A DNA stretch of 64,000 nucleotides from a virus, in the IMG/VR virus record IMGVR_UViG_3300025141_016157, positions 96,347 to 160,346 of that record. One strand, written 5' to 3'. Shown here in pieces: positions 7,722-57,808 of the stretch (its first letter is position 1; each line of letters starts with the position of its first letter). The notes beneath the pieces were generated by a model. That model saw only the letters and a list, made by a program, of their open reading frames with translations, did no database searches and was not told where the DNA came from. A program made the position numbers and the translations under genes.

Positions 7722-8357
7722 ATGATTATTACAGAGAAAAGGATAAGAGAAATTGTTCTCGAAGAAATTATAAGAGAGCAAGAAGAAGTCAATCAAGATT
7801 GTCCAATTCCATTTCTTGCTGCCATATTAGCCTCTGAAGCTCCCAATAGTGAAAGAGAGATGAGTGCCGTATATGATGTTATTATGAAACGAGCAGAAAT
7901 AGGCTTTAAAGAAGTAAATACGGTCGATGGACAATTAAGAGTTCCCAGGCAATTCTCTGGATATACAAGATTTAGACCAGACGATACTGCATTTATTGCA
8001 TACTATAGTGGTACTGCTCCAGATTCTGAATATTCAGTTTCAGCAGATAGAGTAGAAACAGAGAAGCTTATAAGAAGAAATCAATTTAAAAGAGCATGTG
8101 GTGTAATAGTCTCAGATTTTCAAGATCCCGGTAACCCAGATGCACCTACATATGGAGCAACTCATTTTGTAAATCCAAGAGCAGCATCGACAGATAACAA
8201 GTGGTGGGAACTAGATACGTTTAGACCGATTCCGATTAATAATGGATATATAGGTGATCATCTTTTTGGGTGGGACTTGACAACAAGACAGTCAAGAGAA
8301 TCATATTTACAGTTTAGATCTAGCCATCCAGAATTTAGCAGTCTCTATCCGGATTAA
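7722..8357 (+). CDS. SleB-like cell wall hydrolase (Hydrolase_2) with N-terminal tag
   Basis: AAILASEA (catalytic Glu), AVYDVIMKR, RQFS, GATHFVNP, IGDHLF; starts MIITEKRIREIVLEEIIRE. Confidence 0.7.
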   Translation: MIITEKRIREIVLEEIIREQEEVNQDCPIPFLAAILASEAPNSEREMSAVYDVIMKRAEIGFKEVNTVDGQLRVPRQFSGYTRFRPDDTAFIAYYSGTAPDSEYSVSADRVETEKLIRRNQFKRACGVIVSDFQDPGNPDAPTYGATHFVNPRAASTDNKWWELDTFRPIPINNGYIGDHLFGWDLTTRQSRESYLQFRSSHPEFSSLYPD

Positions 8358-8360
8358 GCT

Positions 8361-9020
8361 TTAATCTTCAAATTTTCTCAGCCTGGCAACACCATCTGTC
8401 ACAGTAACATACGTCTGGTGTGTAACCCAGTCGCCTGCATTGATATATGTTTTAATATTCTGATCTTCGTCAACCCATATTAAAGCTTCTGGTATGTGTG
8501 TATGACCCATAATAAACACATCAACTTTGGGATGGTGTCTAAGAATATTTATAATTGATCTTAGCTTGTGCTTCTTAATTTGAATTTCCGTCCACCATGT
8601 TGTAAAGTCAAAGTTAAAAGTGAATTCAAGTATATTTTGAATAACAGATAGAAATTTAACAAATACTCTATTTGCAAGAGCACCCTTGTCGTAAGAATCG
8701 CCGTGTTCAACTCTAAACACTCGGCCTTCATCTTCAAAGTCATACCTTTTAACAAATTCAACACCCATTATTTTTTTACCAACAACTCCCATTAAACCTT
8801 CGTCATGATTTCCAACTACATAGATAATTCTTTTTGCATCACCCATTTTTTCAAGTATCTGAAGACATCTTTCTGTAAAGACAGGTATCTTTATAAAATC
8901 TATAATATCACCAGCGAGAACAAGCTCATCACAATCCTCAGACTCTAAAAATGATAAAAGCTCGAGAGACTTATAGAACCTAGTCCCAATATGTGTATCA
9001 GATATAATAACTCTTTTCAT
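8361..9020 (-). CDS. Calcineurin-like metallophosphoesterase (LpxH-like)
   Basis: SDTHIG, GDIID, GNHD, EHGD, GHTH, NAGDW motifs. Confidence 0.85.
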   Translation of the reverse strand: MKRVIISDTHIGTRFYKSLELLSFLESEDCDELVLAGDIIDFIKIPVFTERCLQILEKMGDAKRIIYVVGNHDEGLMGVVGKKIMGVEFVKRYDFEDEGRVFRVEHGDSYDKGALANRVFVKFLSVIQNILEFTFNFDFTTWWTEIQIKKHKLRSIINILRHHPKVDVFIMGHTHIPEALIWVDEDQNIKTYINAGDWVTHQTYVTVTDGVARLRKFED

Positions 9021-9113
9021 TGAACAGTTTGCTAACCTTATATTAATATTATATACAGAACTACAAGGTGTACTATACTTGTGTTACTGAAGTTTAAAAA
9101 TAAAGGAAAAAAA

Positions 9114-9356
9114 ATGACAGATACAAAAAACACATCAATGGCTTTTAGCGATGAGGTAATTGGACAAATTGCAAAACTAGTCCAACTAGCAATTATTACA
9201 GGGACAGATATTGTTGATAATTTAAGGATGATGCGTGTAACTCTTGATGGAGAAACTGATGTTCTTACACTAACTGAAGAATATCGTGAAATATCAGAGG
9301 CTCAGGTTGAAAAGCTTATGCAAGAAGTAGAGGCACTTCAATCAGAAGAGGTGTAA
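9114..9356 (+). CDS. Hypothetical protein
   Basis: ATG at 9114 after AAGGA Shine-Dalgarno; in line with downstream genes. Confidence 0.7.
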   Translation: MTDTKNTSMAFSDEVIGQIAKLVQLAIITGTDIVDNLRMMRVTLDGETDVLTLTEEYREISEAQVEKLMQEVEALQSEEV

Positions 9357-9359
9357 GCT

Positions 9360-9731
9360 ATGGAAGATAGACTCTTAGAAATATTTAGGAGAAGAGAATC
9401 TTTTATGAAGAGCCTTGGTGATTCTTCCGGAGAATCTATGAACTGGCCACTTGATTTATCAAAAAAAGAAAATCAGCAACATGTCAGGGATATGGCACTA
9501 AGAGGTGTCGAAGAGATGTTTGAAGCACTTCAGCATTTAAAAAACTGGAAACCTCATCGGAAAACAGAAATAACTGAATTTGATAGAGAAGAATTTCTTG
9601 AAGAGATTGTAGATGCATTTAATTATTTTCTATCGATTCTTGTCCTTACAGGATTTGATGATAATGATTTAATTGATGCATACAGAAGAAAAGACAAGAT
9701 TATAAATGAAAGATTGAGGACTGGATATTGA
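9360..9731 (+). CDS. All-alpha dimeric dUTPase/dCTPase (MazG superfamily, T4 gp56-like)
   Basis: EEMFEA..NWKPHR, EEIVDAFNYFLS, C-terminal NERLRTGY. Confidence 0.75.
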   Translation: MEDRLLEIFRRRESFMKSLGDSSGESMNWPLDLSKKENQQHVRDMALRGVEEMFEALQHLKNWKPHRKTEITEFDREEFLEEIVDAFNYFLSILVLTGFDDNDLIDAYRRKDKIINERLRTGY

Positions 9732-10639: not shown

Positions 10640-10674
10640 TTTATCCAATGATTAAGAATTTTCTGCAGCAGTTG

Positions 10675-10738: not shown

Positions 10739-11671
10739 ATGAAGCTAACTCAAAAATCTTTAAAGAAAATTATTCTTAGCGAGCTTAGAAGGTCCATATC
10801 AGAACAAGCACGAGATGCGGGTGACGTCCCCGGGGGCCAGGCACCAGCACGAGGCACCCAAGCCTATGCTGACAGCCAGAGAGAAATATGGGGTGTCTCT
10901 GATGAAGATCTCGAAAGAGAGCGCATCCAGAAACAGGCAGACGAGCGAGGAATATCTTTTGAAGAAATGGAGGCTATTCTTGCTCATATGGATTCCCCAG
11001 AGTACCGCAGAGAACAATACCTAAGACAGCAAGAACAGGCACGTGCCCATGCACGGGATGAAGGAAACTGGCCTGAGCCAAGGACTGGCAATATGTATGA
11101 AATCATTGGTGATCCACACAGCGTTGATATTCAAAACGGATTGAAGTGGTTGTGGCTTGGTGCAGTCCGGGACTCTAAGGTTTTGGAAGGTGTTGCTAAA
11201 CAGTTCACCCCTAGAGTTCCAGCTGAGGGTGAGTACTTGGCAGGTTTTTCTTCTCCGATGTGGGCATTGGTTGATCACAGGGACGAAAATGGTGTATATA
11301 CACAGCTTGTCACTCAGCCCGTGGGTGAGAGGCGAAGAGGCGCAGAGATATGCAGAATCACCGTCGAATACATTATGAAAGTATCGGGCGATCAAGTAGA
11401 TTGTGAAATGGCATGGAACAGTGATATGGTTAGACCAGGTAGCCAGCTTGCGCGAATGATGGACGCAGCAGTTCAGGCAGTAAATGGTTCATCAGCTTCT
11501 TTCCCTGCATCGCTAAAATTCTTTCCTGATGGACGAACTGAGGGAGCAAACGCAGAAGTTCCAGCCTCAGAAGACGAAGTACCGGTTGCAATTCTTGAAT
11601 TCACAGGAGGCGAGGTTGTGGCGCTGGTCAACATGGACTTCGGTTTTCGCGTTAGCCCATATGCTCGATAA
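10739..11671 (+). CDS. Hypothetical protein with N-terminal tag (putative virion internal protein)
   Basis: Starts MKLTQKSLKKIILSELRRSISE; GAGG SD; visibly more GC-rich than flanks. Confidence 0.7.
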   Translation: MKLTQKSLKKIILSELRRSISEQARDAGDVPGGQAPARGTQAYADSQREIWGVSDEDLERERIQKQADERGISFEEMEAILAHMDSPEYRREQYLRQQEQARAHARDEGNWPEPRTGNMYEIIGDPHSVDIQNGLKWLWLGAVRDSKVLEGVAKQFTPRVPAEGEYLAGFSSPMWALVDHRDENGVYTQLVTQPVGERRRGAEICRITVEYIMKVSGDQVDCEMAWNSDMVRPGSQLARMMDAAVQAVNGSSASFPASLKFFPDGRTEGANAEVPASEDEVPVAILEFTGGEVVALVNMDFGFRVSPYAR

Positions 11672-13237: not shown

Positions 13238-13654
13238 ATGTCTTTTTCAGATTCATTTAGCATGATTGAATCATGGCTTTTTGAAAAGGATTATGAAGTC
13301 TTGTACGAGACTGATGGTCAAGATGCTGTTTATTTTGGCTGTAAGCAAATTATTCTTAACAGTAGAAACCATATTGAAAAGAGACTATATATACTTTTGC
13401 ACGAATGTGGTCACATACTAATAAATAGCAACTCTTTCGACAGGGTATTTTCCCTTAGCAGCGAAACAGAAGCTATAATGGGCGGTAGAAAAGTTTCTAG
13501 AAAAAGAAGAGTTGCAAAGCTAACAGAGGAAATTGAAGCCTGGAAACGAGGTGAGAATCTTGCAAGAAGGCTTGGGATAGAAATAAATGAAGAAAAGTTT
13601 GATAGAATACGTGCGAATGCTATTATGAGCTATATCGAATGGGCAAGAGATTAG
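13238..13654 (+). CDS. Small HEXXH zincin-like metallopeptidase
   Basis: LLHECGH plus downstream EEIEAW. Confidence 0.6.
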   Translation: MSFSDSFSMIESWLFEKDYEVLYETDGQDAVYFGCKQIILNSRNHIEKRLYILLHECGHILINSNSFDRVFSLSSETEAIMGGRKVSRKRRVAKLTEEIEAWKRGENLARRLGIEINEEKFDRIRANAIMSYIEWARD

Positions 13655-14463
13655 CTCACTGAATGTTTAATATTTGTGTAGAGCTTAGTTAGAAATTTCT
13701 CTAGAGATTTTCTATCATTCTTTAATGTTTCTTTATATCTGGAAACTATTCCAGCAAGATCAGAGTCTTGCCTTTTGATAAGTGAAAGCGCTTCTTCTTG
13801 CGTGTATTTATCTAAAAGCTGCTCAGATGCTTCATATGCAAATGCATCAATTTCATTATGAAGGCTAAGGTAGTCTTCCTGCGTTCCGCCTTTTGACAAC
13901 TGCTTGGGATCGTTCTGTAGTTCTTCCCATGCCTCTTCTTCACTAATCCCTTTGCTTTCTGCCTGTTTCTTAAGTTGATTATAGTGAACTAGTTCATGGT
14001 TGATAGTTCGTGATATTATCTTTGATAGCTCTGTAGAGTCTAAGTCATCCATATCATACTCATCAGAGTAGGGTCTAAACTCAAGCCATATAATGTGTTT
14101 CCCATTTTCAGGACCTCTGTATTGACCTCTCATCATCCAGTTGCTAGGATATCCTCCATATTCATCTCCCGGTCCTAAAGTATATAGCTCATTATCTGTA
14201 ACACTGAGGAAAAAATATAGATCTGTACCAAGATCACTAGCAGATGTATTTAGTGCATCCATAAGAGTTTCAATTGCAGGAGTTGACCAGGTCGACTCAT
14301 CAACAAGATCTACATCATTTTCATTGTGAGCCATTTCCCAAAACTTAGAATCGACAATTCCTTGAAAAATAGCTGATGTCAATTCTTTATCAGGTGCTGT
14401 TGATTCACACAGCAAGATCTCTTCCTTGATGATCTGTCTTAATTGCCTGCGTGTGATTTTCAT
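13651..14463 (-). CDS. HEXXH metallopeptidase-like protein with N-terminal tag
   Basis: Starts MKITRRQLRQIIKEEILLCE; INHELVHYNQ and NEIDAFAYE. Confidence 0.7.
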   Translation of the reverse strand: MKITRRQLRQIIKEEILLCESTAPDKELTSAIFQGIVDSKFWEMAHNENDVDLVDESTWSTPAIETLMDALNTSASDLGTDLYFFLSVTDNELYTLGPGDEYGGYPSNWMMRGQYRGPENGKHIIWLEFRPYSDEYDMDDLDSTELSKIISRTINHELVHYNQLKKQAESKGISEEEAWEELQNDPKQLSKGGTQEDYLSLHNEIDAFAYEASEQLLDKYTQEEALSLIKRQDSDLAGIVSRYKETLKNDRKSLEKFLTKLYTNIKHSVS

Positions 14464-14483: not shown

Positions 14484-14491
14484 TAATTATT
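14484..14491 (-). promoter_or_regulatory. AATANTTA motif (putative late promoter), minus strand
   Basis: Reverse complement AATAATTA 20 nt upstream of the minus-strand tagged gene. Confidence 0.5.
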
Positions 14492-15074: not shown

Positions 15075-18000
15075 ATGTCATCTATTATTAAACCCAAGAA
15101 GTTTGTCGGTCTACATGCACATTCTGGAACAGGTAGTCCGTATGACGGTCTTGGATATCCAAACCAGCATATTGACTTTGTCTTGTCAAATGAAATGAAT
15201 GCATGGGCACTGACTGATCACGGTAACGGTAACGGTCTTGCCCATGCACATGCTTATGCAAAGAAGCTAAAGAAGAAAGGTAGGGATTATCGACAGATTT
15301 ATGGTGTTGAGTTTTACTTTGTACCTTCATTGCTTGAATGGCGTGAATCTTACGAAGCACATCGTGAAGAAGTTCGTGCAGCAAGGTCTGAAAAGAAGTT
15401 AAAAGAGTCAACAGATATTAACTCTGAAGATGAGATTTCTGGAGGTCTTATAATTGAAAATGAAGATGAGACAAAAAATGATTTCGAGAAAAACGATTGG
15501 AAGAGGCGATATCACCTAGTTGTCATCGCAAAGAATCAAATTGGTCTACAGAATCTTTTCACTCTTGTCAAGAAGTCTTATACAGATGGTTTCTACAGAT
15601 TCCCTAGAATTGATTACAATCTTCTCAAGATGCACGGTGAGGGTCTTGTAGTAAGTACAGCATGCATTGGTGGCTATCCCTCATCTTTAATTGCTAGAGG
15701 GGAGGCAACAGGCAAGTCTGATAGTGATATTATTCTAGATTTAGAAAACATGTCTGATAGATTTATTGATGCCGTAGGCAGGAAAAACTTTAATCTAGAA
15801 GTTCAATTTAACTCTCTATCAATGCAACATAAAACCAATAAGCATCTTATTTCTCTACATGAGAAAACAGGTATACCGCTTGTCGCTACTGCTGATAGTC
15901 ACTACTATGGTAGAAATATGTGGGAAGCACGAGAATTGTATAGAAAACTCGGCCGCATGGGTGCAAGAGGAGATGCAATGCCGTCACTTCCAGCTTTTGA
16001 AGACTTGAAGTGTGAGCTCTATCCCAAGAATGCTGAACAAATGTGGGATGAGTATAAACAGCATGCTTCAAGCTATGATTTCTACAAGGGTAAAGATCAG
16101 CTAATAGCTGATGCAATTGAAAGATCTTACGATATTGCATGGGAACAATGCGAAGATGTCTGGTTTGATGAGGAGGCAAAGCTTCCAAGATTTGGTACAC
16201 CGACAGACTCAGCATTCAATCAGCTAGCACGAAGAGTTAAAGAGGCACTAGTTAAAGAAGACCTTCATAAAGATCAAGAATATGTTGATCGTGCAAAGAT
16301 GGAGCTAGATGATATCAAGTATCTTGGATTTGAAAACTATTTCCTAACTATGACAAAGGTTTTTGACCTAGCATCACAAAGCACTATTATCGGCCCAGGT
16401 CGCGGCTCTGGCGCTGGATCACTAGTTAACTACTTGCTAGGAATTACAACAACAGACCCGATTAAATATGGGCTTCTATGGGAGAGATTTCTTCACAGGG
16501 CAAAGGCAGGATGGCCAGACATTGATACAGATGCTGGTGATAGAGATGTCCTGATCAATGCTTCAAGAGAACTTTTCGGAGAAGAGTCTGTTGTTCCAGT
16601 TTCCAATTTTAATACACTTAAGCTTAAGTCCCTTGTTAAGGATGTTTCAAAGTTTTATGGTATTGACTTTGGCGAAGTTAACGCAATGACAAATACTTTA
16701 GAAAAAGATGTTATGCATAAAGCTATGGGTGATCATGAAGAAAGATCAACATATGTTCTTACACATGAAGATTGTATGAAGTACTCGCAGAAGTATTCTG
16801 ATTTTATGGATGAATACCCGAAGGTAAGTGAACATGTCCAGAATCTTTTTATGGAGTCTAGATCAATTGGTAGACATGCTGGGGGTGTTTTAATCTGCCC
16901 GAATCTCGAGAAGCATATGCCCGTTATTAAGGTAAGGGGCGAATTGCAAACACCATGGTCTGAAGGTATGAACTTTAGACATCTTGAAACAAACGGATTT
17001 CTTAAGTTTGATTTTCTCGGTCTAACAACACTTAAGATGGTCGAAGATTGTACAAGACTTATTCTTAGAAAGCAAGGCAATCTATCACCTACGTTTGCTG
17101 ATATTCAAAAGTTCTTTGATGAAAAGATGAATTGTAGATATAATGATCTTGATGATCAAAATGTATGGGAGCATGTTTACCATAAGGGTCGGTTTGTACA
17201 GGTATTCCAGTTTACCCAGCAAGGCGCAAGAAACTTTTGCACTTCTGCAAAGCCAAGTACTATTGAAGAATTAGCAACAATTACAGCAATCTATCGGCCA
17301 GGACCTCTTTCTGCTGGTGTTCATAGAAAGTACGTAAAAGCTAAGAAGTCAGTTGAGGATGGTAAACCTATTGAGTATGATCACCCTGTTATCGAAGAGA
17401 TTCTAAGCGAAACTTACGGCTTTATCTCGTTCCAAGAGCAGTTCATGCTCTTAGCACAGAAGCTAGCTAATTTTGACAAGGGTGCATCAGATAAGATGCG
17501 TAAGACACTAGTTAAGAAATCACTCGATTCAAATGCTGCAAAGGTTCAAGAAAGAATTGACCTTCACAAGAAGTTTGTCAACGGTGCAGTTGAGATATCT
17601 GGGATGGATAAGGACAAGGCTGAGAAGCTCTATGAGACAATTGAATTCTTCTCTGGGTATGGCTTCAATAAGTCGCATGCAGTGTCCTACGCCATTGATT
17701 CCTATTACTCTGCATGGCTTCACACATACTATGAAAAAGAATGGCTTGCAACATGCTTGCAAACACAAAATGGCTCTAGTAAGTTTGGAAAGGTCATCTC
17801 TGAGATTAAATCACTAGGATATACAATTTTACCGCCTGACATCAACGCCTCTTCTGATGTCTGGGTTTACAGTGATGAGAGGGGAGGCTTTGTCCCACCT
17901 CTAACAGCAATCAAGGGTGTTGGCGACGCTGCCGTTGCAGAGATTATGGAAAGGAGACCATTCTCCAGTCTTGATGAGATGATGTTTACTGAGGATGGCA

Positions 18001-18663: not shown

Positions 18664-19995
18664 ATGAAGATAACAGAGTCAAGAATCAGAAGAATTATAA
18701 GAGAAGAGCTTCTTCAGGAATCTAGTGACTTTAGATTTGACATTAACAAAAGTGTATATGTACTTCCTGATGCGCAGGTAGAGATTGAAAAAGCGGGGGA
18801 TGGCTGGCTATTAAAGATCAGGAATTTACAAGCAGGACAATTTGGTTCAGTTCCTTTGAACATCTACGGACCATCCTACATGCTTGATTCGCTTGTACCA
18901 CACGGAGCAGAGCCGGGCGATAAGCATCATAGGTTCTTGCAATCTGTAGGCTTTCCATTTGATGATCATCCTCCCTACGAAACCTGGGAGAATGAATTTC
19001 CCGGGGGCGCCAGAAGATTTATCACTGATGGTGACTACCTTGATCAGTACCTTGAAAGATTTCACAAAGATGAGGAATTTACTAGTGAGTTCAGGCTAAG
19101 CTACTTTGGCTACGCTCAGGATGTCTTACAGGGAATTCGCTTAACGCTTGATAGAATTGACAGCTATATACATAGCAATAGGGTTCAAAATATCATAGCT
19201 AGGGATCATGATGATTTTAAAGATAAGCTTGCAAAATTTTTCTCAATAAGTGAAATAAACATTGTTGATAAGACAGCACGAGATACGGCTGGTTTCTATA
19301 TGCCATCTGAACACAGTATCACAATTGCAGTTGCAAGAAACCCGCGTAAGGTGACAAGGGAAACAACCTATCATGAATTTCTTCATCACTGGCAAGAAAT
19401 TTTTGATGAACCTGAAAATTTTGATTGGAAGTTTCGTCCACTTGAACGTGAAGATGAGACAGGCTTAGGGCAAGAAGATGAAACATATGAAGCTCTTTAT
19501 TCACAACTAATGGCTGCCTCAAATATTCCAGTAAGAAGGTGGCTTAGGAACCTCGGAGCAAGCTATCTTAATCTTCCTACTAATTTTGACAGATATACTG
19601 TTAGAGAGTCAATGAGAAAAGCTGAAAGCTTTGAGATGTCATTAAGCGCTGATGATAAGGGGGAGTGGAGTGGTTTTGATTCAGTCTTTAAGGCATTTTA
19701 CCAGTTTCAGGAAAACCACTTTACAATGTCCCTAAGACGACTCTTTATGATCTTAAATAACTTAGGATATGATTTAGATTTAACTAGTGATAATAGCATT
19801 GAAAGATTTAAAGAGGGATTAAATTTATTTTTAAGATTTGGATTTCCACACAGCGTATATCTTAAAAACAGGGATTTGATTGCGTTACCTTTGTTTCTTA
19901 AGCCTACACCAAAGAATATAAATTTAATCACAAGAATAGGTGATACTCTTGCTTCTAATGAAATACATTCTGACAGTGGTACTGAAACTGTATAA
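18664..19995 (+). CDS. HEXXH metallopeptidase-like protein with N-terminal tag
   Basis: Starts MKITESRIRRIIREELLQE; AGFY..ITIA..TYHEFLHHWQ. Confidence 0.7.
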   Translation: MKITESRIRRIIREELLQESSDFRFDINKSVYVLPDAQVEIEKAGDGWLLKIRNLQAGQFGSVPLNIYGPSYMLDSLVPHGAEPGDKHHRFLQSVGFPFDDHPPYETWENEFPGGARRFITDGDYLDQYLERFHKDEEFTSEFRLSYFGYAQDVLQGIRLTLDRIDSYIHSNRVQNIIARDHDDFKDKLAKFFSISEINIVDKTARDTAGFYMPSEHSITIAVARNPRKVTRETTYHEFLHHWQEIFDEPENFDWKFRPLEREDETGLGQEDETYEALYSQLMAASNIPVRRWLRNLGASYLNLPTNFDRYTVRESMRKAESFEMSLSADDKGEWSGFDSVFKAFYQFQENHFTMSLRRLFMILNNLGYDLDLTSDNSIERFKEGLNLFLRFGFPHSVYLKNRDLIALPLFLKPTPKNINLITRIGDTLASNEIHSDSGTETV

Positions 19996-20008: not shown

Positions 20009-20016
20009 AATAATTA
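20009..20016 (+). promoter_or_regulatory. AATANTTA motif (putative late promoter)
   Basis: AATAATTA 19 nt before ATG 20036. Confidence 0.5.
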
Positions 20017-20035: not shown

Positions 20036-20968
20036 ATGAAAATCACACACAAGCGGCTAAAAAGAATTATAAGAGAAGAGCTTCTACGTGAGGCCAGTGG
20101 AGCTGCAGGTCCGGGCACAGTTCCAGGATACAATTATATTGAGGTATCTGAGTACAGAGGTAAACCTGCTCACATGATAAATGCTAAGCATCTCAAAAGA
20201 ACTTTGAAAGAGACATTGGGTATAAAGCAACATGGAACGGCTGACGACCACTTCCACCAGGCGGGCTTGGGAGGTATTATTTCTGGTTGGGGAAGCCTAA
20301 GTAAGAAACTAACAAAAATCTGGAGCGATCGAATCCCCCAGGGACAAGGCGGTCATGGAACGGGATGCCAAAGCTGCTGGGCAGACTTCTTTATTCTTGT
20401 AGATCTTGGAAAATGTGGAGCATCTCAGGCATACTTGATCCCTGGTGTTAGCGTTGTTGAAGATATTCCAATTATAGTATTTGGAGATATTAGTCTTGAG
20501 CCTCTAATTGATCACATAGCAGATGAAGCAGGCTTGGCGATAATTGGGAAAGGCGAAAAAAGAGATGATGCTGAACAACAGACTGTTGAAAATGAGTGGG
20601 CAGAATGGACAGGTAGACAGTATGAGCTTATTAGTAAATTTCATAATAAGGTGTATTATGGAGGCGAGATGCTTTCCGACCTATTACACGATGCATTTGT
20701 TTTCCGGACACCAGTAATTGTTGTGCTCCCAAGGTCATCGCTAATTAAAGATATTGATCCGTGTGTCATTGCTAAAAATTATCAACTTCTTAGAGCGCCA
20801 CCGGTGACACCGGTGGCTCCAGCTGTTAAGGATGAAGTAGAGCTTGATCCTGCAAGCGTGGAGATAGATCCCCAGGGCCAGCAAATAGATATTGATTCTG
20901 AGATATATGATGCGCCTCTTGAGCCGTATAAATCTCCCTTTAGAACTCCAATAGGTAAGCAAGATTAA
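20036..20968 (+). CDS. Hypothetical protein with N-terminal tag
   Basis: True start probably ATG 20036 (MKITHKRLKRIIREELLRE), not 19940. Confidence 0.7.
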   Translation: MKITHKRLKRIIREELLREASGAAGPGTVPGYNYIEVSEYRGKPAHMINAKHLKRTLKETLGIKQHGTADDHFHQAGLGGIISGWGSLSKKLTKIWSDRIPQGQGGHGTGCQSCWADFFILVDLGKCGASQAYLIPGVSVVEDIPIIVFGDISLEPLIDHIADEAGLAIIGKGEKRDDAEQQTVENEWAEWTGRQYELISKFHNKVYYGGEMLSDLLHDAFVFRTPVIVVLPRSSLIKDIDPCVIAKNYQLLRAPPVTPVAPAVKDEVELDPASVEIDPQGQQIDIDSEIYDAPLEPYKSPFRTPIGKQD

Positions 20969-20969
20969 A

Positions 20970-23900
20970 ATGAAGATAACAGAATCCAGAATCAGAAGAA
21001 TCATAAGAGAAGAGCTTCTTAAAGAAGATAGCGAAGATACCGTTCTAGGAAAAATGAGCTGGCCCATGGCGCCTGGTGTCTCAGACCCGTTTGGTGAACT
21101 ACGATCCTCAAATCCCCCACCAGTTCTTTCAACATCAATGTGGTATGACCTCGATGGTGACGCAATGCTATCGAGTCATAAGATTGAATCAAAGAAATTT
21201 ATTGAACACCTTATGGATACTATAGAGCACAGAGGTGGAGTTGCAAACTCTGTTGCAAATGCTGGACACATCGCAGCTGTCTACAAGGAAATGGGTGTTG
21301 AGACGCGAATAGCTCCATACCCTGGGCCTAAGCATTGGGGTGCAGGAGATTATGAGTCATGGGGAGAGTTTCCAGGATCAGCAAGAAGTTTTTTTAAAAA
21401 GTATGACCCATGGGTTCTTGATGCGGACGAGATATTTCTCGTAACAGTTGATAATACTTCTTACAGGGCTCCTGGCCAAAAAGTTACAGAGATTGAACCT
21501 GAAGATATGGAGATGGGAGTTGAATACGGAGGAACAACTGATCCCGCAGCTGGCAAGATTAAGCGAGCACTTAGCTCTCTACTTGGTGACCTTACGCTTC
21601 CTGCCCATTACGATCCTTCACCAGTTCAACTGACCGCTGCTAAATCATGGCTGTCTCAATGGCTTCCAGGAGGAAATCCATCTCCTGAAATGGCTAGGGC
21701 AATGGCAGCTACAAATCCATACAATGCTGTCTGGGAAACATTTCTAGGTCCAATAAAAGAGTGTCTAAGCGGTCAAGCAGCTGCCAAAGAAGAAGCTACT
21801 CGAAGAGCATCAAAGCAGGATGATTTCTATTCTAGAGAAGGGGCAGACATAACCTTTGCTGGAGGAGCAACGTCAGAGGATACCCAGGCTGTTCTCAAAC
21901 AAATGCAAAAAACTGGGGAGGCAGAAAAGATATCAGATGAATCAATTGGGACTTCTTCTGCTGGTCTGTGTGCATCAGCCAGAGCATCAGAGCTTATAGC
22001 ATTGTTAGTTTTGCCATCTGGACAGTTTACTTTAGCCGGAAGGATTGCGCTAGCAGCTGGTCTCGTTCATCTTGCAAGAGGCTCTCACAGAGAGGCTATG
22101 TTTGAACTACTGCTTGGTGCATTTGAGATTGTAGCAGCAACCAAAGCGATTGTAAGATATACCGCAGTAGTTAAAAGTGCACTTAGGTCAGGAAAGCTTC
22201 CGGCAGATGACATTCTCGAAGAAATGATTAAAGCTGGAGTATTTGAAGAGCATGCTGATATAATAAGGCGGTTAGCAAGACAGCCAAAGATGGAGGAAGA
22301 AGTTCAAGCTATGCGCCAAGAGATGGCAAGAGTAATCGAGACAATGGATAGTACAGATCCCTTGAAGCCTTATCTGGATGCATATGTTAGAGGAGCCAGT
22401 TCAGATGAGCTTAGGGGAATATACAAGGCTGCCAAGGCTGAGATTGAGTCTGGAGCTCGCTGGGACATTCACACGTCAACTAGACGTGCAGCTGATATTG
22501 ATCCAGATGAGCTCGATGCGTGGCTAGAAAGACTTGAGGACTTACCGCTTACATCATCTCCTGGATCTAGAAAAGCTGTAATAGACAAGTATATAGAATC
22601 TCAGATCAGTATAAATAGAGCTCTGGAAGCTGAACAGGCAACAGCAAGAGGTGCAGGTCGAGGGAAATCGACTCCGGAAAATCCATGGGGAAAGGGTCCT
22701 GAGCCTAAAGCAATTAGACCCGCAGGATCTAAGGCGCCATTAGCACAAACAGCCAATATGGGAAGACAGATTATTGATTTAGCATATGCCAAATTACGAT
22801 CGATACCTGATGGTAAAATTTATAAGATTGCAAAATTCGAAAGAGGTCACTTCAGCGACGTTGATAGAATTGAAATTAGACTGGATGGTTTGTTTGATGT
22901 TGATGATATTGAAAAAATTGTTGACGACTCTCTCGGTGACTATCTAAACACGCTCACACCCCCGCAGGCATCAAGGTATAAGCAAGATGTTATTGAAGAA
23001 ATCCAAAACCTTGACTTTGTAGTAGGACCAAGGACTCCTGACAGGGTGGGACAATATGTCCAATCCGGACCTGGTCAAAGAGGCCAAGTCTGGGTTGAAC
23101 CGTTTGACAAAGAAGAGTGGAAGGCTATAGTAGGAACCAATAGAGATCGACCAGATTTTGAAGAAGCCGTTAAAAAAGCTTTTATCGACGCTCTAGATTC
23201 TGGAACAAAATTTGATTTGCCAGAGCAGGTGAGAAATACACTTTCTCATGAACTTGGTCACTGGATAGACCTCACTATCGAGGGAAATAAATATGATCAC
23301 CTTATTGTAGATTCAAATGGAATTCCCATGAGGGAAATCGATGGCAAGCAGATGACATTTGATCAAGCTGTCAAAGAAAGAAAAGTTAAAACAATAGAAG
23401 AATGGCTACAGGACCCGCCGGATATCTTTGGAGATTTCGTAACGCAACCCTGGCATGGAAGAATTGGGGAGCTAGATGCTGAAATAACAAGAGGCGTAAC
23501 AGATTTTCAAGATTCCCTAGAGGCATCAATTAAAAGAATTCGTGACCTTGATGATCAATATAAGCTTCCCTGGGATATCTCTCCCAGAAAGCCGCCGCGA
23601 GATCAACAGCCAGTAGCATCTGATAGTCCGTCAGCATGGGATAGAAGAAGTACTACCAAACACCCATCACAGACTACTCGCAGACAAGAGCCGAAAAAAT
23701 GGGATGATGCAGAGACAAAGTCAGCAATGCACAAAGAAGAGATGGCAGAGATCGGCTTGGACGAACTAGATTATACATATCAAATATTGACTGATAAAGA
23801 TCTATTTAGGGATATATTTGTCGGAGACTACTTTCCTATTGAGCCTAACCGTGGGTATCTTGATGATTATGGATGGGTAGGAAGTGCAGAAAATATCGTA

Positions 23901-24047
23901 GATCAAAAGATTGATGACGTTCTTTTCGAACCTGGCGGATTATGGGACTGGGCTAGAAAGGAAGCAGGAATAAACGTTGAGTACATTGACATGCAGGAGT
24001 CAGTTGTATATGTGTCTCGGTGGATGAAACTTGCAGGTATAAAATGA
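20970..24047 (+). CDS. Large tagged protein with hydrophobic hairpin and C-terminal HEXXH peptidase-like domain
   Basis: MKITESRIRRIIREELLKE; LSHELGHWID...ELDAE; ends MQESVVYVSRWMKLAGIK. Confidence 0.7.
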   Translation: MKITESRIRRIIREELLKEDSEDTVLGKMSWPMAPGVSDPFGELRSSNPPPVLSTSMWYDLDGDAMLSSHKIESKKFIEHLMDTIEHRGGVANSVANAGHIAAVYKEMGVETRIAPYPGPKHWGAGDYESWGEFPGSARSFFKKYDPWVLDADEIFLVTVDNTSYRAPGQKVTEIEPEDMEMGVEYGGTTDPAAGKIKRALSSLLGDLTLPAHYDPSPVQLTAAKSWLSQWLPGGNPSPEMARAMAATNPYNAVWETFLGPIKECLSGQAAAKEEATRRASKQDDFYSREGADITFAGGATSEDTQAVLKQMQKTGEAEKISDESIGTSSAGLCASARASELIALLVLPSGQFTLAGRIALAAGLVHLARGSHREAMFELLLGAFEIVAATKAIVRYTAVVKSALRSGKLPADDILEEMIKAGVFEEHADIIRRLARQPKMEEEVQAMRQEMARVIETMDSTDPLKPYLDAYVRGASSDELRGIYKAAKAEIESGARWDIHTSTRRAADIDPDELDAWLERLEDLPLTSSPGSRKAVIDKYIESQISINRALEAEQATARGAGRGKSTPENPWGKGPEPKAIRPAGSKAPLAQTANMGRQIIDLAYAKLRSIPDGKIYKIAKFERGHFSDVDRIEIRLDGLFDVDDIEKIVDDSLGDYLNTLTPPQASRYKQDVIEEIQNLDFVVGPRTPDRVGQYVQSGPGQRGQVWVEPFDKEEWKAIVGTNRDRPDFEEAVKKAFIDALDSGTKFDLPEQVRNTLSHELGHWIDLTIEGNKYDHLIVDSNGIPMREIDGKQMTFDQAVKERKVKTIEEWLQDPPDIFGDFVTQPWHGRIGELDAEITRGVTDFQDSLEASIKRIRDLDDQYKLPWDISPRKPPRDQQPVASDSPSAWDRRSTTKHPSQTTRRQEPKKWDDAETKSAMHKEEMAEIGLDELDYTYQILTDKDLFRDIFVGDYFPIEPNRGYLDDYGWVGSAENIVDQKIDDVLFEPGGLWDWARKEAGINVEYIDMQESVVYVSRWMKLAGIK

Positions 24048-29170: not shown

Positions 29171-29449
29171 ATGAAAGAATTGAACTCTAAATCCATCAAC
29201 AAATTAGTCTCTTATATAAGAGAGAACCTATCAGTATCTGCAGGCACAGGTGATAACAAAAGAATTCTTATCAAGCCCGGGTTGAAAATAACGCATGTGG
29301 GCAATAAAGAAAATCAGGGTTCTGGGCTCAATTATACAGTTGATGCAGTTTTAGATTCAGAAGATGGATTACTTATAAGATGTGTAAGACCCCCAGACGT
29401 CTTTATCACACTCACAGGCACTGACCTAAAACAGTTTGAGAGAACATAA
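29171..29449 (+). CDS. Hypothetical protein
   Basis: ORF with tag-like N-terminus (..INKLVSYIRE), coupled to the next gene. Confidence 0.65.
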   Translation: MKELNSKSINKLVSYIRENLSVSAGTGDNKRILIKPGLKITHVGNKENQGSGLNYTVDAVLDSEDGLLIRCVRPPDVFITLTGTDLKQFERT

Positions 29450-30138
29450 TGACAATAACAAAAAAAGATTTATTATCTAAAATTAGAGATGATCTAAATT
29501 TATCAGATACCCTAGAAGAATCTATAATTGCCCAGCCAAAGAAGTTTAGATTAAAAACTGATTTATTGAGCGAGGCAAACAAGGTAAATCATGTTGAGCT
29601 ATATGATCAGTACGTAAAAGACTTTAATAAGATAAGCATTGAGTTAGACTCAGCTAATAGAAAAGACTCTAGCTCTAACGGATCACTCTATAGATCTTTA
29701 AAAATAGATGAGACATACAATCTAAACTCAGTATATCTTCATGAGCTTTACTTTAATAATATTAGCGATCTTCATAGTAATATTCCAATGGACTCTTTGG
29801 TGTATATGAGGCTGTCTAGAGATTTTGGAACATTCGATGCCTGGCAGCAAGATTTTATAGCCAGCTGCATGGCCTCAAGATGCGGATGGGCTATCACATA
29901 TTATAATATGTTCACACAGACTTATATGAATTGTCCTATTGATCTACACTCGATTAATGTGCCTGTTGGTGCATACCCAGTAATTGTTATGGATGTTTGG
30001 CAGCATGCATATTATCGTGATTATCTAAAGGATAAGAAATCTTATGTTTTTGGAATGATGAAACAGCTCAATTGGAGCGTGATTGAAAAGAGGGTTGAAA
30101 AAGCAGAAGAGATATCAAGAGTGGTAAAAGGTGGATAG
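29449..30138 (+). CDS. Fe/Mn superoxide dismutase-like protein with N-terminal extension
   Basis: NH..LY..Y, LHELYF, DFGTFDAW, GWA, MDVWQHAYYRDY; leader MTITKKDLLSKIRDDL..LEE. Confidence 0.8.
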   Translation: MTITKKDLLSKIRDDLNLSDTLEESIIAQPKKFRLKTDLLSEANKVNHVELYDQYVKDFNKISIELDSANRKDSSSNGSLYRSLKIDETYNLNSVYLHELYFNNISDLHSNIPMDSLVYMRLSRDFGTFDAWQQDFIASCMASRCGWAITYYNMFTQTYMNCPIDLHSINVPVGAYPVIVMDVWQHAYYRDYLKDKKSYVFGMMKQLNWSVIEKRVEKAEEISRVVKGG

Positions 30139-36610: not shown

Positions 36611-37885
36611 ATGAGAATAAGTCGTCAAAAAATTGAAAGTCTGATTCTATCTGAGATAAGTTTAAAACATGAAATAGACTCAGATGAGTATATAAATGAA
36701 CTTGATGACCTGATACTATCCATCAAGAATCTTAAAAGCTCTTTAAGAAAAGGGCCTAGTAGAAAGTCAAATAGAAAGGAAATGCATCGATTGCAAAGTG
36801 CAATAGAGGCTGTTAGATTTATTAAAAAAAAATCTAAGAGAAAAAGAGAAAAAATGCTTTCTGAGGGTGGAAGGAAAATTTCTCACCTGCCAGAAGATAA
36901 AATAGCAAAGCTATCTCCTGAAGTTGTTACAAGTGCAATCTCAATCTATAGAGACCTTATTGCCCAGTTTAATGATTATCTAGGGCAGAAAGGGCTAGAT
37001 CCAGTTTCACCAGATAGAGCAGTTGGATCAACTGCTTATTATCAGGAAGATCTTGAGGAAGATTCAGATGTTATCTACGGAGATATAGACTATCTTGTTG
37101 TATTTCCACACGTTAAAAATAGTGAAAATTTTAAAAACTTAAGAGATTTACAGTCCAGAACTAAAAGAGAGTACTCTGGTTACTTTCTTGATTTTATAAA
37201 ATCTTCTAGTCCCGACAATGTAGACGTAGAGCTAACAGGTGAGGTATCTCCAACCATGGTTGTCTTGTCACTTCCAGATGATAAAAAAGTCCAAGTTGAT
37301 CTTATAGCAACGTTTCCAAGATATCAGGAATGGATGAATACAAGATGGGTTCCTGAAAGAGGTGTCAAAGGATATATTGGTGGAAATCTATACAAAGCAT
37401 TTGGAGATTCACTTGTTCTAACAGTTGGAGATCAGGGTGTTATTGCAAGAACTATTGATGGAAAAAGAGTTTCGTCAAACAAGCGAGGAAAAGAAGTAAA
37501 CGTTGAGCAAATATCATCAAGCCCACAGACTTTTTTTAAAGATATAGTTTCCTATCTATCCGGAGACAGTTTACAAATTTCAAAAGATCTGGAAGACTTC
37601 CAGGGAATGGATCCTAAAAATATTTCTGTATCTGATATAGCAAAAGGTATAAGACTTGTTTCAGAAAATCTTTATGAAAATGACTCCCTTCCGTCGAGAT
37701 TTAAAAATCCAAGAGAGATGCTAGAGGAGGTTCTTGCTCGTTTTAAGATAGCTATAGACAACTCTCTTTCTAAGAAGTCAAAGCCAAGCTCTCAAGGTGG
37801 TATGTTAAGTGATGAAAAGCTATCAAAGCTAGTAAAAATGAATGCAGAGCAGTATAATAATGTTAAAAGTGAATTTAACTTATAG
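36611..37885 (+). CDS. Pol-beta superfamily nucleotidyltransferase with N-terminal tag
   Basis: MRISRQKIESLILSE; MLSEGG; VGSTAYY...GDIDYLV; VQVDL. Confidence 0.7.
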   Translation: MRISRQKIESLILSEISLKHEIDSDEYINELDDLILSIKNLKSSLRKGPSRKSNRKEMHRLQSAIEAVRFIKKKSKRKREKMLSEGGRKISHLPEDKIAKLSPEVVTSAISIYRDLIAQFNDYLGQKGLDPVSPDRAVGSTAYYQEDLEEDSDVIYGDIDYLVVFPHVKNSENFKNLRDLQSRTKREYSGYFLDFIKSSSPDNVDVELTGEVSPTMVVLSLPDDKKVQVDLIATFPRYQEWMNTRWVPERGVKGYIGGNLYKAFGDSLVLTVGDQGVIARTIDGKRVSSNKRGKEVNVEQISSSPQTFFKDIVSYLSGDSLQISKDLEDFQGMDPKNISVSDIAKGIRLVSENLYENDSLPSRFKNPREMLEEVLARFKIAIDNSLSKKSKPSSQGGMLSDEKLSKLVKMNAEQYNNVKSEFNL

Positions 37886-44970: not shown

Positions 44971-46748
<1,778 letters not shown>

Positions 46749-47593: not shown

Positions 47594-48319
47594 ATGGGTA
47601 ATTTACTTGATGTATATATGAAAGATGTTGGGAAATCTTCACTGCTCTCTCGAGAGCAAGAGGTTGAACTTTGCAAAAGAATTGAAATGGGCGATAGCTC
47701 TGCAAGAGATAAGATGATACAAAGCAATCTTAGACTTGCAATTAGCATTGCAAAGAGGTACTACAGAAGTGGATGCCCAATGGAAGACCTAATCCAGGAA
47801 TCTAATATTGGTCTCATGAAAGCAGTTGAGAGATTTGACTGGAGAAGGGGATTTAAGTTTAGTACATACGCAAGCTGGTGGATTAAGCAATCTGTATCGC
47901 GGTACGTAGCATCACATAAAAATACAGTTAGAGTTCCCTCTCATGCAATTTCACTTGCATATAAAGTAAAGAATCTAATTAAAGAATATGAAGAGGATCT
48001 CGGGAGCGTTCCGTCTGTTAAGGAAATAGCATCTCTTCTTGGTGTTACTGAGTCCATGGTTGAGCTGAGTGTTGAATCTCTTAAGCTTAATAATATTCTA
48101 TCTATTGATACACCGGTTGGTGATGCAGATTCATCTAGAACTATCGGTGACATGATTGAAGATAAAGATGCAAACTCTGTTGAAGATATACTAGATAACC
48201 AAAAAATAAGATCAGTAATTGTAGCTTCGCTTTCTAGACTAAGCAAAAGAGAAGAACAGGTTTTAAGATTGAGATTTGGAATCTCTGAAATTGAAAACGC
48301 AGAAGACTTTGAAATTTAA
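47594..48319 (+). CDS. Sigma70-family factor, regions 1.2-4.1 (lacks the region 4.2 HTH)
   Basis: YMKDVG..LLSREQE (1.2), SNLRLAISIAKRY, DLIQE.NIGLMKAVERFD, FSTYASWWIKQ (2), SIDTPVG (3.2), LSKREEQVLRLRFGI, then stop. Confidence 0.9.
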   Translation: MGNLLDVYMKDVGKSSLLSREQEVELCKRIEMGDSSARDKMIQSNLRLAISIAKRYYRSGCPMEDLIQESNIGLMKAVERFDWRRGFKFSTYASWWIKQSVSRYVASHKNTVRVPSHAISLAYKVKNLIKEYEEDLGSVPSVKEIASLLGVTESMVELSVESLKLNNILSIDTPVGDADSSRTIGDMIEDKDANSVEDILDNQKIRSVIVASLSRLSKREEQVLRLRFGISEIENAEDFEI

Positions 48320-55409: not shown

Positions 55410-55424
55410 AAGCGTTAAGTTATT

Positions 55425-55772
55425 TTGTGGTTACAGCTAGCGATAAGTACTTTTTTATTTACTATTCTTCACACACTAGTCTGGTTTAGTACAAATTTAC
55501 AGTTTGTAAAAGGATTTGACAATAGTAAGTCTCTATTTATTTCATTGTTGCTTTCTATACCGATTACTTTATGCGCATTTTATGCAACAAAGATTGCGTA
55601 TAGCGCAATGAGTGACTCTCTTTGGTCTGTAAGATTTATAGGATTTGGAATGTCCTATCTTGTATTTCCAATACTAACATGGACTATTCTTGGTGAGTCT
55701 ATGTTTACGATAAAGACTATTTCGTGCATATGTCTTTCAATTATAATTGTGTGTATACAAGTTTTCTTTTAG
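55425..55772 (+). CDS. Small 4-TM membrane protein (EamA/SMR-like)
   Basis: Four hydrophobic helices; LGE motif before the last helix. Confidence 0.65.
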   Translation: MWLQLAISTFLFTILHTLVWFSTNLQFVKGFDNSKSLFISLLLSIPITLCAFYATKIAYSAMSDSLWSVRFIGFGMSYLVFPILTWTILGESMFTIKTISCICLSIIIVCIQVFF

Positions 55773-55780
55773 TAGAAACG

Positions 55781-55788
55781 AATAATTA
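55781..55788 (+). promoter_or_regulatory. AATANTTA motif (putative late promoter)
   Basis: AATAATTA. Confidence 0.5.
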
Positions 55789-55806
55789 TAAAATAGAGAG
55801 GGCTTG

Positions 55807-56229
55807 ATGAAAAATCATGTAGTTACCATTAGAGATATTCCCTTGTCTGTTGAGGTTGCAGATACTGAGGAACTAAGGCAGAAAGGTCTTATGAATAGGA
55901 TGAACCTGGCTCATGATTCAGGCATGCTTTTTATATTTGAAGAACCTAGAGAATTAGGGTTCTGGATGAAAAATACAAGAATACCTCTTTCTATTGCATT
56001 TCTATCATCGACAGGAGACATTTTGAACATAGAGGACATGAATCCGTACGATTCTACTACACAAAAATCTATTTCAGATGCCAGATGTGCAATAGAGGTA
56101 AACCAGGGGTGGTTTAAGAGAAATGGTATAAACCCAGGAGATACAGTAAGCGGGATTCCCATAGAGGATACAGTTACAATAACAGAAGATAAACTTAGAG
56201 AAATAGTACGGAATGTACTTTTAGGATAA
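55807..56229 (+). CDS. DUF192 family protein with C-terminal tag
   Basis: VEVADT..R.KGLM.R, GMLFIF, FWMKNTRIPLSIAF, AIEVNQG; ends VTITEDKLREIVRNVLLG. Confidence 0.85.
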   Translation: MKNHVVTIRDIPLSVEVADTEELRQKGLMNRMNLAHDSGMLFIFEEPRELGFWMKNTRIPLSIAFLSSTGDILNIEDMNPYDSTTQKSISDARCAIEVNQGWFKRNGINPGDTVSGIPIEDTVTITEDKLREIVRNVLLG

Positions 56230-56234
56230 ATATT

Positions 56235-56804
56235 ATGAAACTAATTTCACTTTTTGCTCTTTTACTATCTGGCTGCGCAGCAACCCTTGACTCAGATGTT
56301 GGAGTTGAAGATTCTACGCAAGTAGACAATAGACAATGGCACACATGGGAGGAATGTGGCGCATTGCCCGGAGAGAACCCATGTAATTTTACGCTTCTTG
56401 ATCAGAATAATAAAGAAGTAGAGCTTTATGATTTCTATGGAAAGGTAATCATACTAGATCTTTCTGCAATGTGGTGTGGCATATGTGTAAACATAGCAGG
56501 AACTAGTGAAACTCTTGTAGATGATCTTGGTAGTGATAAAGTTGTATGGATAACCGTTCTAATAGAAGATGAATCTGGTCTCCCGCCTGATCAGAGTGAT
56601 TTACAAAGATGGGAATCTCAACACGGAGGATCAGGTCCAATACTTGCGGGAGATAGATCACTTGTAGATCCAACAGGAGAAACTGGATACCCAGTAACGG
56701 GTTGGCCAACAGTCGTAGTCATAGACCAAAAAATGACAGTATTCAATGGAATAACAGGCTGGAGTGAAGATATGGTTAGGGGATGGGTAACCTCACTGCT
56801 ATAG
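56235..56804 (+). CDS. TlpA-like thioredoxin lipoprotein
   Basis: Lipobox LSGC; FTLLDQ, GKVIILD..AMWCGIC, WPT. Confidence 0.8.
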   Translation: MKLISLFALLLSGCAATLDSDVGVEDSTQVDNRQWHTWEECGALPGENPCNFTLLDQNNKEVELYDFYGKVIILDLSAMWCGICVNIAGTSETLVDDLGSDKVVWITVLIEDESGLPPDQSDLQRWESQHGGSGPILAGDRSLVDPTGETGYPVTGWPTVVVIDQKMTVFNGITGWSEDMVRGWVTSLL

Positions 56805-56833
56805 TTGTAAAATTGTAAATAATTCTGTATTAT
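56805..56833 (+). promoter_or_regulatory. Class I promoter TTGTAA-N17-TATTAT
   Basis: TTGTAA 56805-56810, TATTAT 56828-56833. Confidence 0.55.
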
Positions 56834-56857
56834 TAGTTTGATAAAGAAGAATTTATT

Positions 56858-57118
56858 ATGATAGCTAAAGAAAAAAAATGGTACGTTTATCTTCTTGTCT
56901 GTTCAGACATGACTCTTTATTGTGGTATAACTACTGACATAGGAAGACGACTTGTTGAGCATAACCAGTCAAAGAAAGGTGCAAAATATACAAGATCGAG
57001 GAGGCCAGTAGAGCTTGTGGGCTATGTTGAAAAGAATAGCAGATCAGAAGCGCTATCATACGAAATAAAGATAAAAAAGCTTAAGAGGAAAGAAAAAATA
57101 CTAATGTTTATTCAATAG
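56858..57118 (+). CDS. Stand-alone GIY-YIG nuclease (YhbQ-like)
   Basis: WYVYLL..D.TLYCGITTD..RR..EHN, GAKYTR, EA...E..IK. Confidence 0.85.
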   Translation: MIAKEKKWYVYLLVCSDMTLYCGITTDIGRRLVEHNQSKKGAKYTRSRRPVELVGYVEKNSRSEALSYEIKIKKLKRKEKILMFIQ

Positions 57119-57126
57119 AATAATTA
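57119..57126 (+). promoter_or_regulatory. AATANTTA motif (putative late promoter)
   Basis: AATAATTA. Confidence 0.45.
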
Positions 57127-57136
57127 CTTATTAGAC

Positions 57137-57808
57137 ATGACAGATAGTAAAAACATATTTAAAAAGTGGTTTTCACTTTTAGAATCAGAAGTAATAGACA
57201 GGTCAAGCCCTAGGTCACTACGTGTTCTTGATTTTGATCACACGGTTGCTTTTACTGGTGAGCTAGTATACGTTTTAAGCCCAGAAGGTGACGTAGTTGA
57301 AACACTTGATTCAGAAGAATATTCTCACCATAGCTTTTCTAGAGACGAAGTACTGGCTGGATTCTCTTACGATTTTAAAGAGTTTGATGACGTAAATCCA
57401 AGTAGGGCAAAAGAGAATAGTCATGTAACTACTATTTTGAGAAATTTTATTAATGCAAAACCAGAGAGAATTATTCTTATTCTCACTGCTCGAAATCAAG
57501 AGGCAGAAAAAGGAATTAGAAATTATTTAGAAACTATTGGAATAGATCACAGTAATATACATGTTGTAGGTGTTGGTAGTTCATCGCCGCAGAAGAAAGT
57601 AGATGAAGTGAAAAATATTTTAGATAAAAATATTTCTATTGATGAGGTAAGTTTTTTTGATGATTCAATGGCAAATACTGAGGAAATGATGAGATTTTTA
57701 AGCGGATATGAGAGAGACAATGGAGATACTGTCTTCTTTGATGTTGCAAAAGTCGAAGAAGATGGAAAATTAACTAGAATGCCCGGCTATAGGGTAAGGA
57801 GAAAATAA
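57137..57808 (+). CDS. HAD-superfamily phosphatase with N-terminal tag
   Basis: LDFDHT, LTAR, KK, FFDDS; leader ..FKKWFSLLE. Confidence 0.8.
   Translation: MTDSKNIFKKWFSLLESEVIDRSSPRSLRVLDFDHTVAFTGELVYVLSPEGDVVETLDSEEYSHHSFSRDEVLAGFSYDFKEFDDVNPSRAKENSHVTTILRNFINAKPERIILILTARNQEAEKGIRNYLETIGIDHSNIHVVGVGSSSPQKKVDEVKNILDKNISIDEVSFFDDSMANTEEMMRFLSGYERDNGDTVFFDVAKVEEDGKLTRMPGYRVRRK

Follow-up and report, generated by a model that had tools for sequence, protein, structure and literature searches.

The last 64 kb (positions 96347-160346, 37% G+C) of the 160,346-bp phage contig IMGVR_UViG_3300025141_016157, called the window below, encodes several unrelated proteins that begin with the same short leader peptide. 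This portable leader is real and statistically secure, and it marks a clade of marine T4-like phages. Judged from its sequence and its company, it is most likely a capsid-targeting propeptide comparable to the capsid-targeting sequence (CTS) of phage T4, and every in silico test that was run fits such a role. A sequence-only reading of this DNA had proposed a modular tag-and-inject system. A portable, Glu-ending leader on unrelated proteins, in a phage with T4-type head maturation, is borne out by our analysis, while the large enzyme set that would be loaded is not, and the promoter-like motif is not specific to the tagged genes. The source of the contig, for which CheckV gives a completeness of 58%, is an uncultured marine T4-like phage.

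The leader and the proteins that carry it

The leader is about 19 residues long, with the consensus M-K-I-T-x3-[IL]-[RK]-x-I-I-x-E-E-[LI]-L-x-E. The N-termini quoted in the sequence-only reading are all present in the DNA where it had placed them. To avoid circularity, a position matrix was made solely from tags in other phage contigs and used to score the N-termini of all 161 open reading frames (ORFs) of the genome against 43,947 internal segments of its own proteome. Eight ORFs outscore every internal segment: six in the window, starting at 7722, 10739, 14463 (minus strand), 18664, 20036 and 20970, and two outside it, at genome positions 60687 (135 aa) and 61161 (81 aa). A profile of the tag run across the genome in six frames recovered the same six ORFs of the window and 61161. 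Chance as an explanation of the leader was ruled out by this ranking together with the enrichment of [LI]-x-E presented below. Eight strong and seven weaker tags had been proposed. The six ORFs of the window account for most of the strong ones; of the remaining two, 36611 is borderline and 46792 is at chance level (17th; p of about 0.03 when the eight tested offsets are counted, with no correction for the 161 ORFs). Among the weaker ones 29449 is borderline, 35683 is marginal (20th, p of about 0.03), and the five others (6925, 30143, 32559, 34737 and 57137) are at chance level, with ranks from 39th to 78th. In the 29449 protein the Sod_Fe_C match covers residues 121-215, and by eye about 28 residues precede the apparent superoxide dismutase (SOD) fold.

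Conservation is position-specific across 220 leader sequences. Pairs of leaders have a DNA identity of 44-72%, the exception being 18664 and 20970 (91%), and the many synonymous codon differences within pairs indicate that selection acts on the peptide. The leader is also kept with its cargo over large distances: all nine homologues of the 7722 protein (45-96% identity) have retained it, with Glu19 invariant and Gln20 nearly so, as have an 80%-identical homologue of the 18664 protein and homologues of the 1025-aa protein (20970) at 74% and 48% identity. The ORF list opens the 20036 gene with a GTG at position 19940, whereas its true start codon is an ATG at 20036, shortly past the end of the upstream gene (19995).

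The claim that the cargoes are unrelated was upheld, since BLASTP among the proteins stripped of their tags gave no match at E<=0.01. The names given to them held in part. The 7722 protein can be called SleB-like: it reaches 18 bits against PF07486, under the 27-bit cut-off, and PF07486 is found in the precomputed annotation of two of its homologues (45-49% identity). HExxH motifs are indeed present in the 14463, 18664 and 20970 proteins, which hold three of only five in the whole proteome, and large tagged proteins from other sources (L052, P0092 and P0119) have comparable ones. The domains of NTase, SOD, PCD and HAD type do exist, but on proteins without a significant tag. A large enzyme set is thus an overstatement: the six convincing tags head one recognisable hydrolase, three proteins with an HExxH motif only and two unknown proteins. 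Searches of PHROGs, Pfam, NCBIfam and PDB sequences left five of the six cargoes without a name, and the leads from the ESM Atlas were all sub-threshold. More specifically, the 10739 protein had no match in Pfam, PHROG or NCBIfam, and the three HExxH cargoes had no Pfam, PHROG, NCBIfam or PDB sequence match; for HExxH cargo the ESM Atlas gave a sub-threshold lead to a cluster of putative metalloproteases (0.88). AlphaFold2 models of the 7722 protein (10-row alignment, pLDDT 46.6) and of the 18664 protein (3 rows, pLDDT 35.2) were of too low quality to support fold searches. A 138-aa ORF (13238-13654) that runs convergently to the tagged 14463 gene has one of the two remaining HExxH motifs of the proteome and a sub-threshold match to Peptidase_M78.

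The largest tagged protein carries a second feature. The C-terminus of the 1025-aa protein shares its motif with the end of the scaffold-like protein (D-R-W-A-V-L-A-G-I-K-N), whose gene lies just upstream of the one for the capsid protein. R-W-x-x-L-A-G-I-K also terminates the scaffold homologues of two other loci (L009 and L083), of Flavobacterium phage immuto, of Microcystis phage Mel-JY01 and of G001, a complete 190-kb relative. Both homologues of the 1025-aa protein (74% and 48% identity) retain the motif, and a 698-aa tagged protein unrelated to it (L052) has the same C-terminus. A looser version, N-W-A-A-L-A-F-G-N-K, is found at the C-terminus of the 60687 protein. The presence of a scaffold motif on cargo suggests direct binding to the inner capsid surface. 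Complex prediction with the scaffold-like protein and a 30-residue leader gave a score of 0.00, which is evidence neither way.

Head maturation and spread across the clade

Elsewhere on the contig lies a T4-type head module with genes for the large terminase, portal, protease and major capsid protein. In Pfam, the gp20-type portal (PF07230) and the gp23-type major capsid protein (PF07068, 258 bits) are far above their cut-offs, and the gp21-type prohead serine protease reaches 90 bits against PF03420, for a cut-off of 27 bits. The protease can be assigned to family S77 on this match and on the columns of T4 gp21 His85 and Ser140, which are invariant in the protease alignment. We take these two residues to be the catalytic ones of T4 gp21.

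All six leaders of the window end in [LI]-x-E, at residue 19-22. For 209 non-identical tagged ORFs, positions 17-28 contain the end of an [LI]-x-E in 153 cases, versus 15 and 20 in two control segments of the same proteins. In 80 of those ORFs the Glu is residue 21 or 22, a place where none is expected from the search profile. T4 gp21 cleaves after Glu in L/I-x-E (PMC9026906) and strips leaders of 10-20 residues from T4's internal proteins and Alt (PMC9026906; PMC9958956). The T-even internal proteins form a diverse set with only the conserved CTS in common (PMC3012670), and the first ten residues of IPIII, the CTS alone, are enough to package foreign proteins (PMC9026906).

The same type of site is found in the head proteins of the phage. 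Its capsid protein has Q-L-L-R-E/Q at the invariant column aligned with the Glu65 maturation site of T4 gp23, and this L-L-R-E is the ending of the 20036 leader. Scored with the leader matrix, the capsid protein's own N-terminus comes 11th among the 161; the capsid propeptide and the leader may contact the same core partner. Near the N-terminus of the protease (genome 60053-60694), L-L-T-E aligns with the L-L-I-E of T4 gp21, a proposed autocleavage site. In addition, the leader-bearing proteins 60687 and 61161 are encoded between the protease and scaffold genes. In T4, the equivalent module encodes two small proteins of the core, gp67 and gp68, immediately ahead of the protease gene, and G001 has an equivalent of a leader-bearing head-module protein.

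To follow the leader beyond this contig, a degenerate DNA pattern of its core was searched in IMG/VR. The pattern was found at 82 ORF starts in 77 loci, and the two positions past it, which are unconstrained, are yet mostly K/R and then E. Nearly all of these loci (73 of 77) have further proteins in common with this phage or with G001, whose portal, protease and capsid protein are 47%, 50% and 51-64% identical to those of the contig. In the 35 largest of the IMG/VR records so found, a profile search found 1-19 leaders per record, often in tandem arrays of ORFs of 70-180 aa. The S77 protease is present in 17 of these 35 records, which are mostly fragments, and in both of those that are at least 90% complete. 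A PF07068 search in the 18 records without S77 gave no match, and since the controls likewise gave none it is uninformative. The leader profile had no match in T4, RM378, Syn9, S-SSM7 or HTVC008M; weaker variants of the leader occur in immuto, in Mel-JY01 and in an uncultured 484-kb phage. In the cultured phage immuto (MW353176), a shorter leader, M-K-K-S-[QE]-L-x-x-I-I-K-E, heads at least three ORFs, of 253, 164 and 192 aa, and a small head-module protein encoded near the protease gene, immuto_198, begins in a related way; the predicted cleavage site of the immuto capsid protein is V-S-E. As a cultured relative, immuto is a possible experimental system.

Among 1.84 billion representative proteins, 3,791 clusters (50% identity) match the leader profile at E<=0.001. 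Ten of these matches were looked up and all are unnamed metagenomic proteins. The cargo is highly diverse, with 152 clusters for 213 non-identical tagged ORFs, 125 of them singletons, and Pfam recognised almost nothing in it except a peptidoglycan-binding domain and TSP3 repeats. It is mostly small, and its net charge is only mildly acidic, which is not informative. In the best 150 of the 3,791 matches, 141 proteins have an N-terminal copy of the leader and 87 have 2-4 copies in frame. Internal copies are usually preceded by E-N-K or E-G-K, codons for which could, by back-translation, spell a ribosome-binding site. The multi-copy proteins may have arisen by fusion of array units, or they may be true polyproteins that the prohead protease cuts. 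The leader motif was not found in the searchable literature. A tblastn search of a phage collection with a 20-residue consensus also gave nothing, probably because the query was short and filtered.

Table 1. Positions of the leaders and associated features (window coordinates unless marked genome or given with an accession)
Feature	Position	Gene	Strand	Remarks
Leader, 19 aa, ends I-R-E; 211-aa SleB/Hydrolase_2-like cell-wall hydrolase	7722..7778	7722-8357	+	Matrix and profile
Leader, 22 aa, ends I-S-E; 310-aa protein	10739..10804	10739-11671	+	Matrix and profile
Leader, 20 aa, ends L-C-E; 270-aa protein, HExxH at residue 156	14404..14463	13651-14463	-	Matrix and profile
Leader, 19 aa, ends L-Q-E; 443-aa protein, conserved HEFLHH at residue 237	18664..18720	18664-19995	+	Matrix and profile
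Leader, 19 aa, ends L-R-E; 310-aa protein	20036..20092	20036-20968	+	Matrix and profile
Leader, 19 aa, ends L-K-E; 1025-aa protein, HExxH at residue 760	20970..21026	20970-24047	+	Matrix and profile
C-terminal S-R-W-M-K-L-A-G-I-K of the 1025-aa tagged protein	24015..24044	20970-24047	+	Same motif as end of scaffold-like protein
Borderline leader-like N-terminus; Fe/Mn superoxide dismutase homologue	29449..29532	29449-30138	+	Rank 10th of 161; missed by profile search
Borderline divergent leader-like N-terminus; 424-aa protein	36611..36655	36611-37885	+	Rank 9th of 161, about 2e-4 per segment; missed by profile search
ATANTTA copy	6892-6898		+	Promoter-like element
ATANTTA copy	7710-7716		+	Upstream of 7722
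ATAATTA	14484-14490		-	20 nt upstream of 14463
ATAATTA, promoter-like	20010-20016		+	19 nt upstream of 20036
S77 protease gene		genome 60053-60694		Outside the window; PF03420
Capsid protein gene		genome 64199-66211		Outside the window; PF07068
Immuto loci with the variant leader or a related N-terminus	L089, L091, L084:8454-8675			MW353176

Genomic context of the tagged genes

Most of the tagged genes or their operons had been said to follow the promoter-like motif AATANTTA. This motif is not over-represented in the window (32 matches versus 25.8 expected). The 7-mer ATANTTA is found at most 60 nt upstream of 34 of the 161 genes versus about 15 in shuffles, mostly 10-25 nt before the start codon. 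It lies within 60 nt of 7722, 14463 and 20036, and 20970 belongs to the 20036 operon; the copy of 10739 is 56 nt upstream, outside the scanned 60 nt. However, the motif is not specific to the tagged genes, as it also precedes many untagged ones, head and tail genes included (protease, scaffold, sheath). Its presence before tagged genes and before the protease, scaffold and sheath genes alike counts in favour of capsid targeting. Two promoter classes, AATAATTA before tagged genes and TATATTTA before structural genes, were considered and rejected: both fit ATANTTA, and the counts favour a single positioned 7-mer.

The named relatives closest by capsid protein (40-50% identity over about half to two-thirds of the protein) are the uncultured 484-kb phage, Microcystis phage Mel-JY01, Flavobacterium phage immuto and Rhodothermus phage RM378. 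A megablast search with 9 kb of the window against phage records gave no match. The replicative polymerase (15075-18632) is a DnaE-type Pol III alpha with PHP, NTPase, finger and HHH domains, unlike the polymerase of T4, gp43, which is of family B. Its gene is followed, 31 nt downstream, by the first in a row of three tagged genes. A GroEL-type chaperonin is encoded at 45159-46748 (Cpn60_TCP1, 229 bits), and the marginal leader candidate 46792 comes next. Other features of the window are a 1562-aa ORF (38547-43235) with a sub-threshold RNA-ligase domain at residues 344-508, a sigma-70 family protein (47594-48319) with regions 1.2, 2 and 3 and only a fragment of region 4, and, at the contig end, a cluster of two tRNA-Met (CAT) and one tRNA-Lys (TTT) at 63348-63976.

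Probable capsid targeting, its alternatives and its significance

By analogy with T4, the leader would dock each protein on the scaffolding core during prohead assembly. Once the shell is complete, the gp21-type S77 protease would cut after the Glu of the terminal [LI]-x-E, and the freed cargo would stay in the head with the DNA and enter the host at infection. Large cargoes such as the 1025-aa protein would carry a second signal, the copy of the R-W-x-x-L-A-G-I-K that ends the scaffold. Across the clade, the leader heads tandem arrays of hypervariable small ORFs, an arrangement similar to the polymorphic internal-protein locus of T-even phages. As a tentative extension of this scheme, the clade may use a two-signal address, the cleavable 19-residue leader and, for large cargo, the scaffold C-terminal motif, to load a hypervariable injected arsenal of more than 150 unrelated families in the contigs sampled, including HExxH (zincin-like) proteins and proteins that bind or degrade the cell wall.

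The leader could instead be a general docking or oligomerisation helix unrelated to the capsid, which would for example recruit small host-takeover proteins to a hub at the polymerase, the chaperonin or the ribosome, its terminal Glu being incidental. Tandem arrays of hypervariable small ORFs are typical of the early or host-takeover regions of phages, leader copies are also internal and C-terminal, the tagged genes of the window adjoin genes for the DnaE polymerase and for nucleotide metabolism, and the phage has its own chaperonin. We nevertheless consider this unlikely, because a docking helix leaves unexplained the enrichment of [LI]-x-E just past the core, the match to the maturation site of the capsid protein, the leader-bearing proteins within the head module, the scaffold C-terminal motif on two unrelated tagged proteins and the restriction of the leader to a clade with S77 protease.

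It is also improbable that the tagged proteins, or the small ones at any rate, serve as expendable blocks of the prohead core like T4 gp67 and gp68, degraded and expelled at maturation and not delivered as cargo. The two leader-bearing proteins by the protease gene do sit at the place of gp67 and gp68, the small cargoes are mostly acidic and have no recognisable domain, and T4 gp21 degrades gp22, gp67 and gp68 to peptides (PMC9958956). However, 152 cargo clusters from 213 ORFs are unlike conserved structural parts. The large cargoes, moreover, include a peptidoglycan hydrolase with the leader in all its homologues, HExxH proteins and a peptidoglycan-binding domain, and such cargoes can be understood only as proteins that persist through maturation and then act on the host. 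Finally, a DNA or RNA element in place of a functional peptide, be it a cassette by which genes are shuffled through recombination or a region for the initiation of translation, is very improbable: the 91% DNA identity of the 18664 and 20970 leaders suggests recent exchange and the residues before internal copies could spell a ribosome-binding site in frame, but the other pairs keep their residues at 44-72% DNA identity through synonymous changes, conservation over the 220 sequences is position-specific and Glu19 of the hydrolase is invariant in homologues down to 45% identity.

Several observations weigh against a capsid-targeting propeptide. The leader is about twice as long as the T4 CTS (about 19 versus about 10 residues) and has no detectable sequence similarity to it; given these differences and the lack of a match in the T4 genome, we regard it as an analogue and not as a demonstrable homologue. 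About a quarter of the 209 tagged ORFs have no [LI]-x-E at positions 17-28. The module is not strictly N-terminal: multi-copy metagenomic proteins are common (P0004, P0015, P0061, P0119 and P0092), 34 of 106 internal copies have no Met, one protein ends in a leader copy, and a DUF192 protein of the window (55804-56229; PF02643, 114 bits) weakly resembles the leader over residues 126-136, at its C-terminal end. The tagged genes of the window are situated among replication genes and not in the head module. In the relatives, only 5 of 208 tagged ORFs have their own ATANTTA directly upstream, because these ORFs sit inside arrays, and the promoter argument therefore does not generalise. The helical nature of the tag, as first proposed, is predicted only at low confidence (pLDDT below 50), and in a hydrophobic-moment test the amphipathicity of the leader was not above that of shuffled versions.

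The CTS borne by T4's internal proteins IPI, IPII, IPIII and Alt is reportedly the subject of work by Mullaney and Black in 1996 and is reviewed in PMC9026906 and PMC9958956. Like it, the leader described here is a short N-terminal element on unrelated proteins that ends in hydrophobic-x-Glu, the gp21 site, and the phage also has head genes of gp20, gp21 and gp23 type. T4 Alt is trimmed at both ends, and the 1025-aa protein has a signal at both ends. In contrast to T4, there are far more copies here, up to 19 per partial genome, in-frame multi-copy forms occur, and the cargoes are mostly acidic, unlike the basic internal proteins of T4. The internal-protein locus of T-even phages resembles the arrays of this clade in that the small genes are hypervariable and the leader is the sole conserved part (PMC3012670; PMC9026906). 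The arms-race logic of injected anti-defence proteins could, by analogy, apply here. The present clade is, however, marine, far-T4 and immuto/G001-like, and the scale is larger, with 3,791 clusters. In phiKZ-like giant phages (201phi2-1, phiKZ and SPN3US) a gp21-related protease cuts many proteins of the head interior after Glu; their propeptides have been inferred to target proteins into the prohead, and paralogues can share identical N-termini (PMC5694885). Unlike the leader, these propeptides mostly exceed 100 residues, have the cleavage motif S/A-x-E and include no single shared portable leader (PMC5694885). A comparison can also be made with scaffolding proteins: a short, clade-conserved C-terminal element of the scaffold is here copied onto cargo. 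The P22-type scaffolding protein binds the coat through a C-terminal helix-turn-helix domain.

To our knowledge, T4's capsid-targeting peptide has been studied almost only in T-even phages. If our interpretation is correct, the leader would be a second and much larger instance of T4-like capsid targeting, in uncultured marine phages. A simple signature would then pick out thousands of proteins for which packaging in virions and injection into hosts are probable, and these would be leading candidates for roles in anti-defence and host takeover. It would also predict the cleavage specificity of the protease, and the C-terminal motif would suggest that large cargo is held by mimicry of the scaffold C-terminus. 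Finally, the leader would provide a ready-made packaging tag for the engineering of such phages and would mark a large unexplored repertoire of phage 'effectors'.

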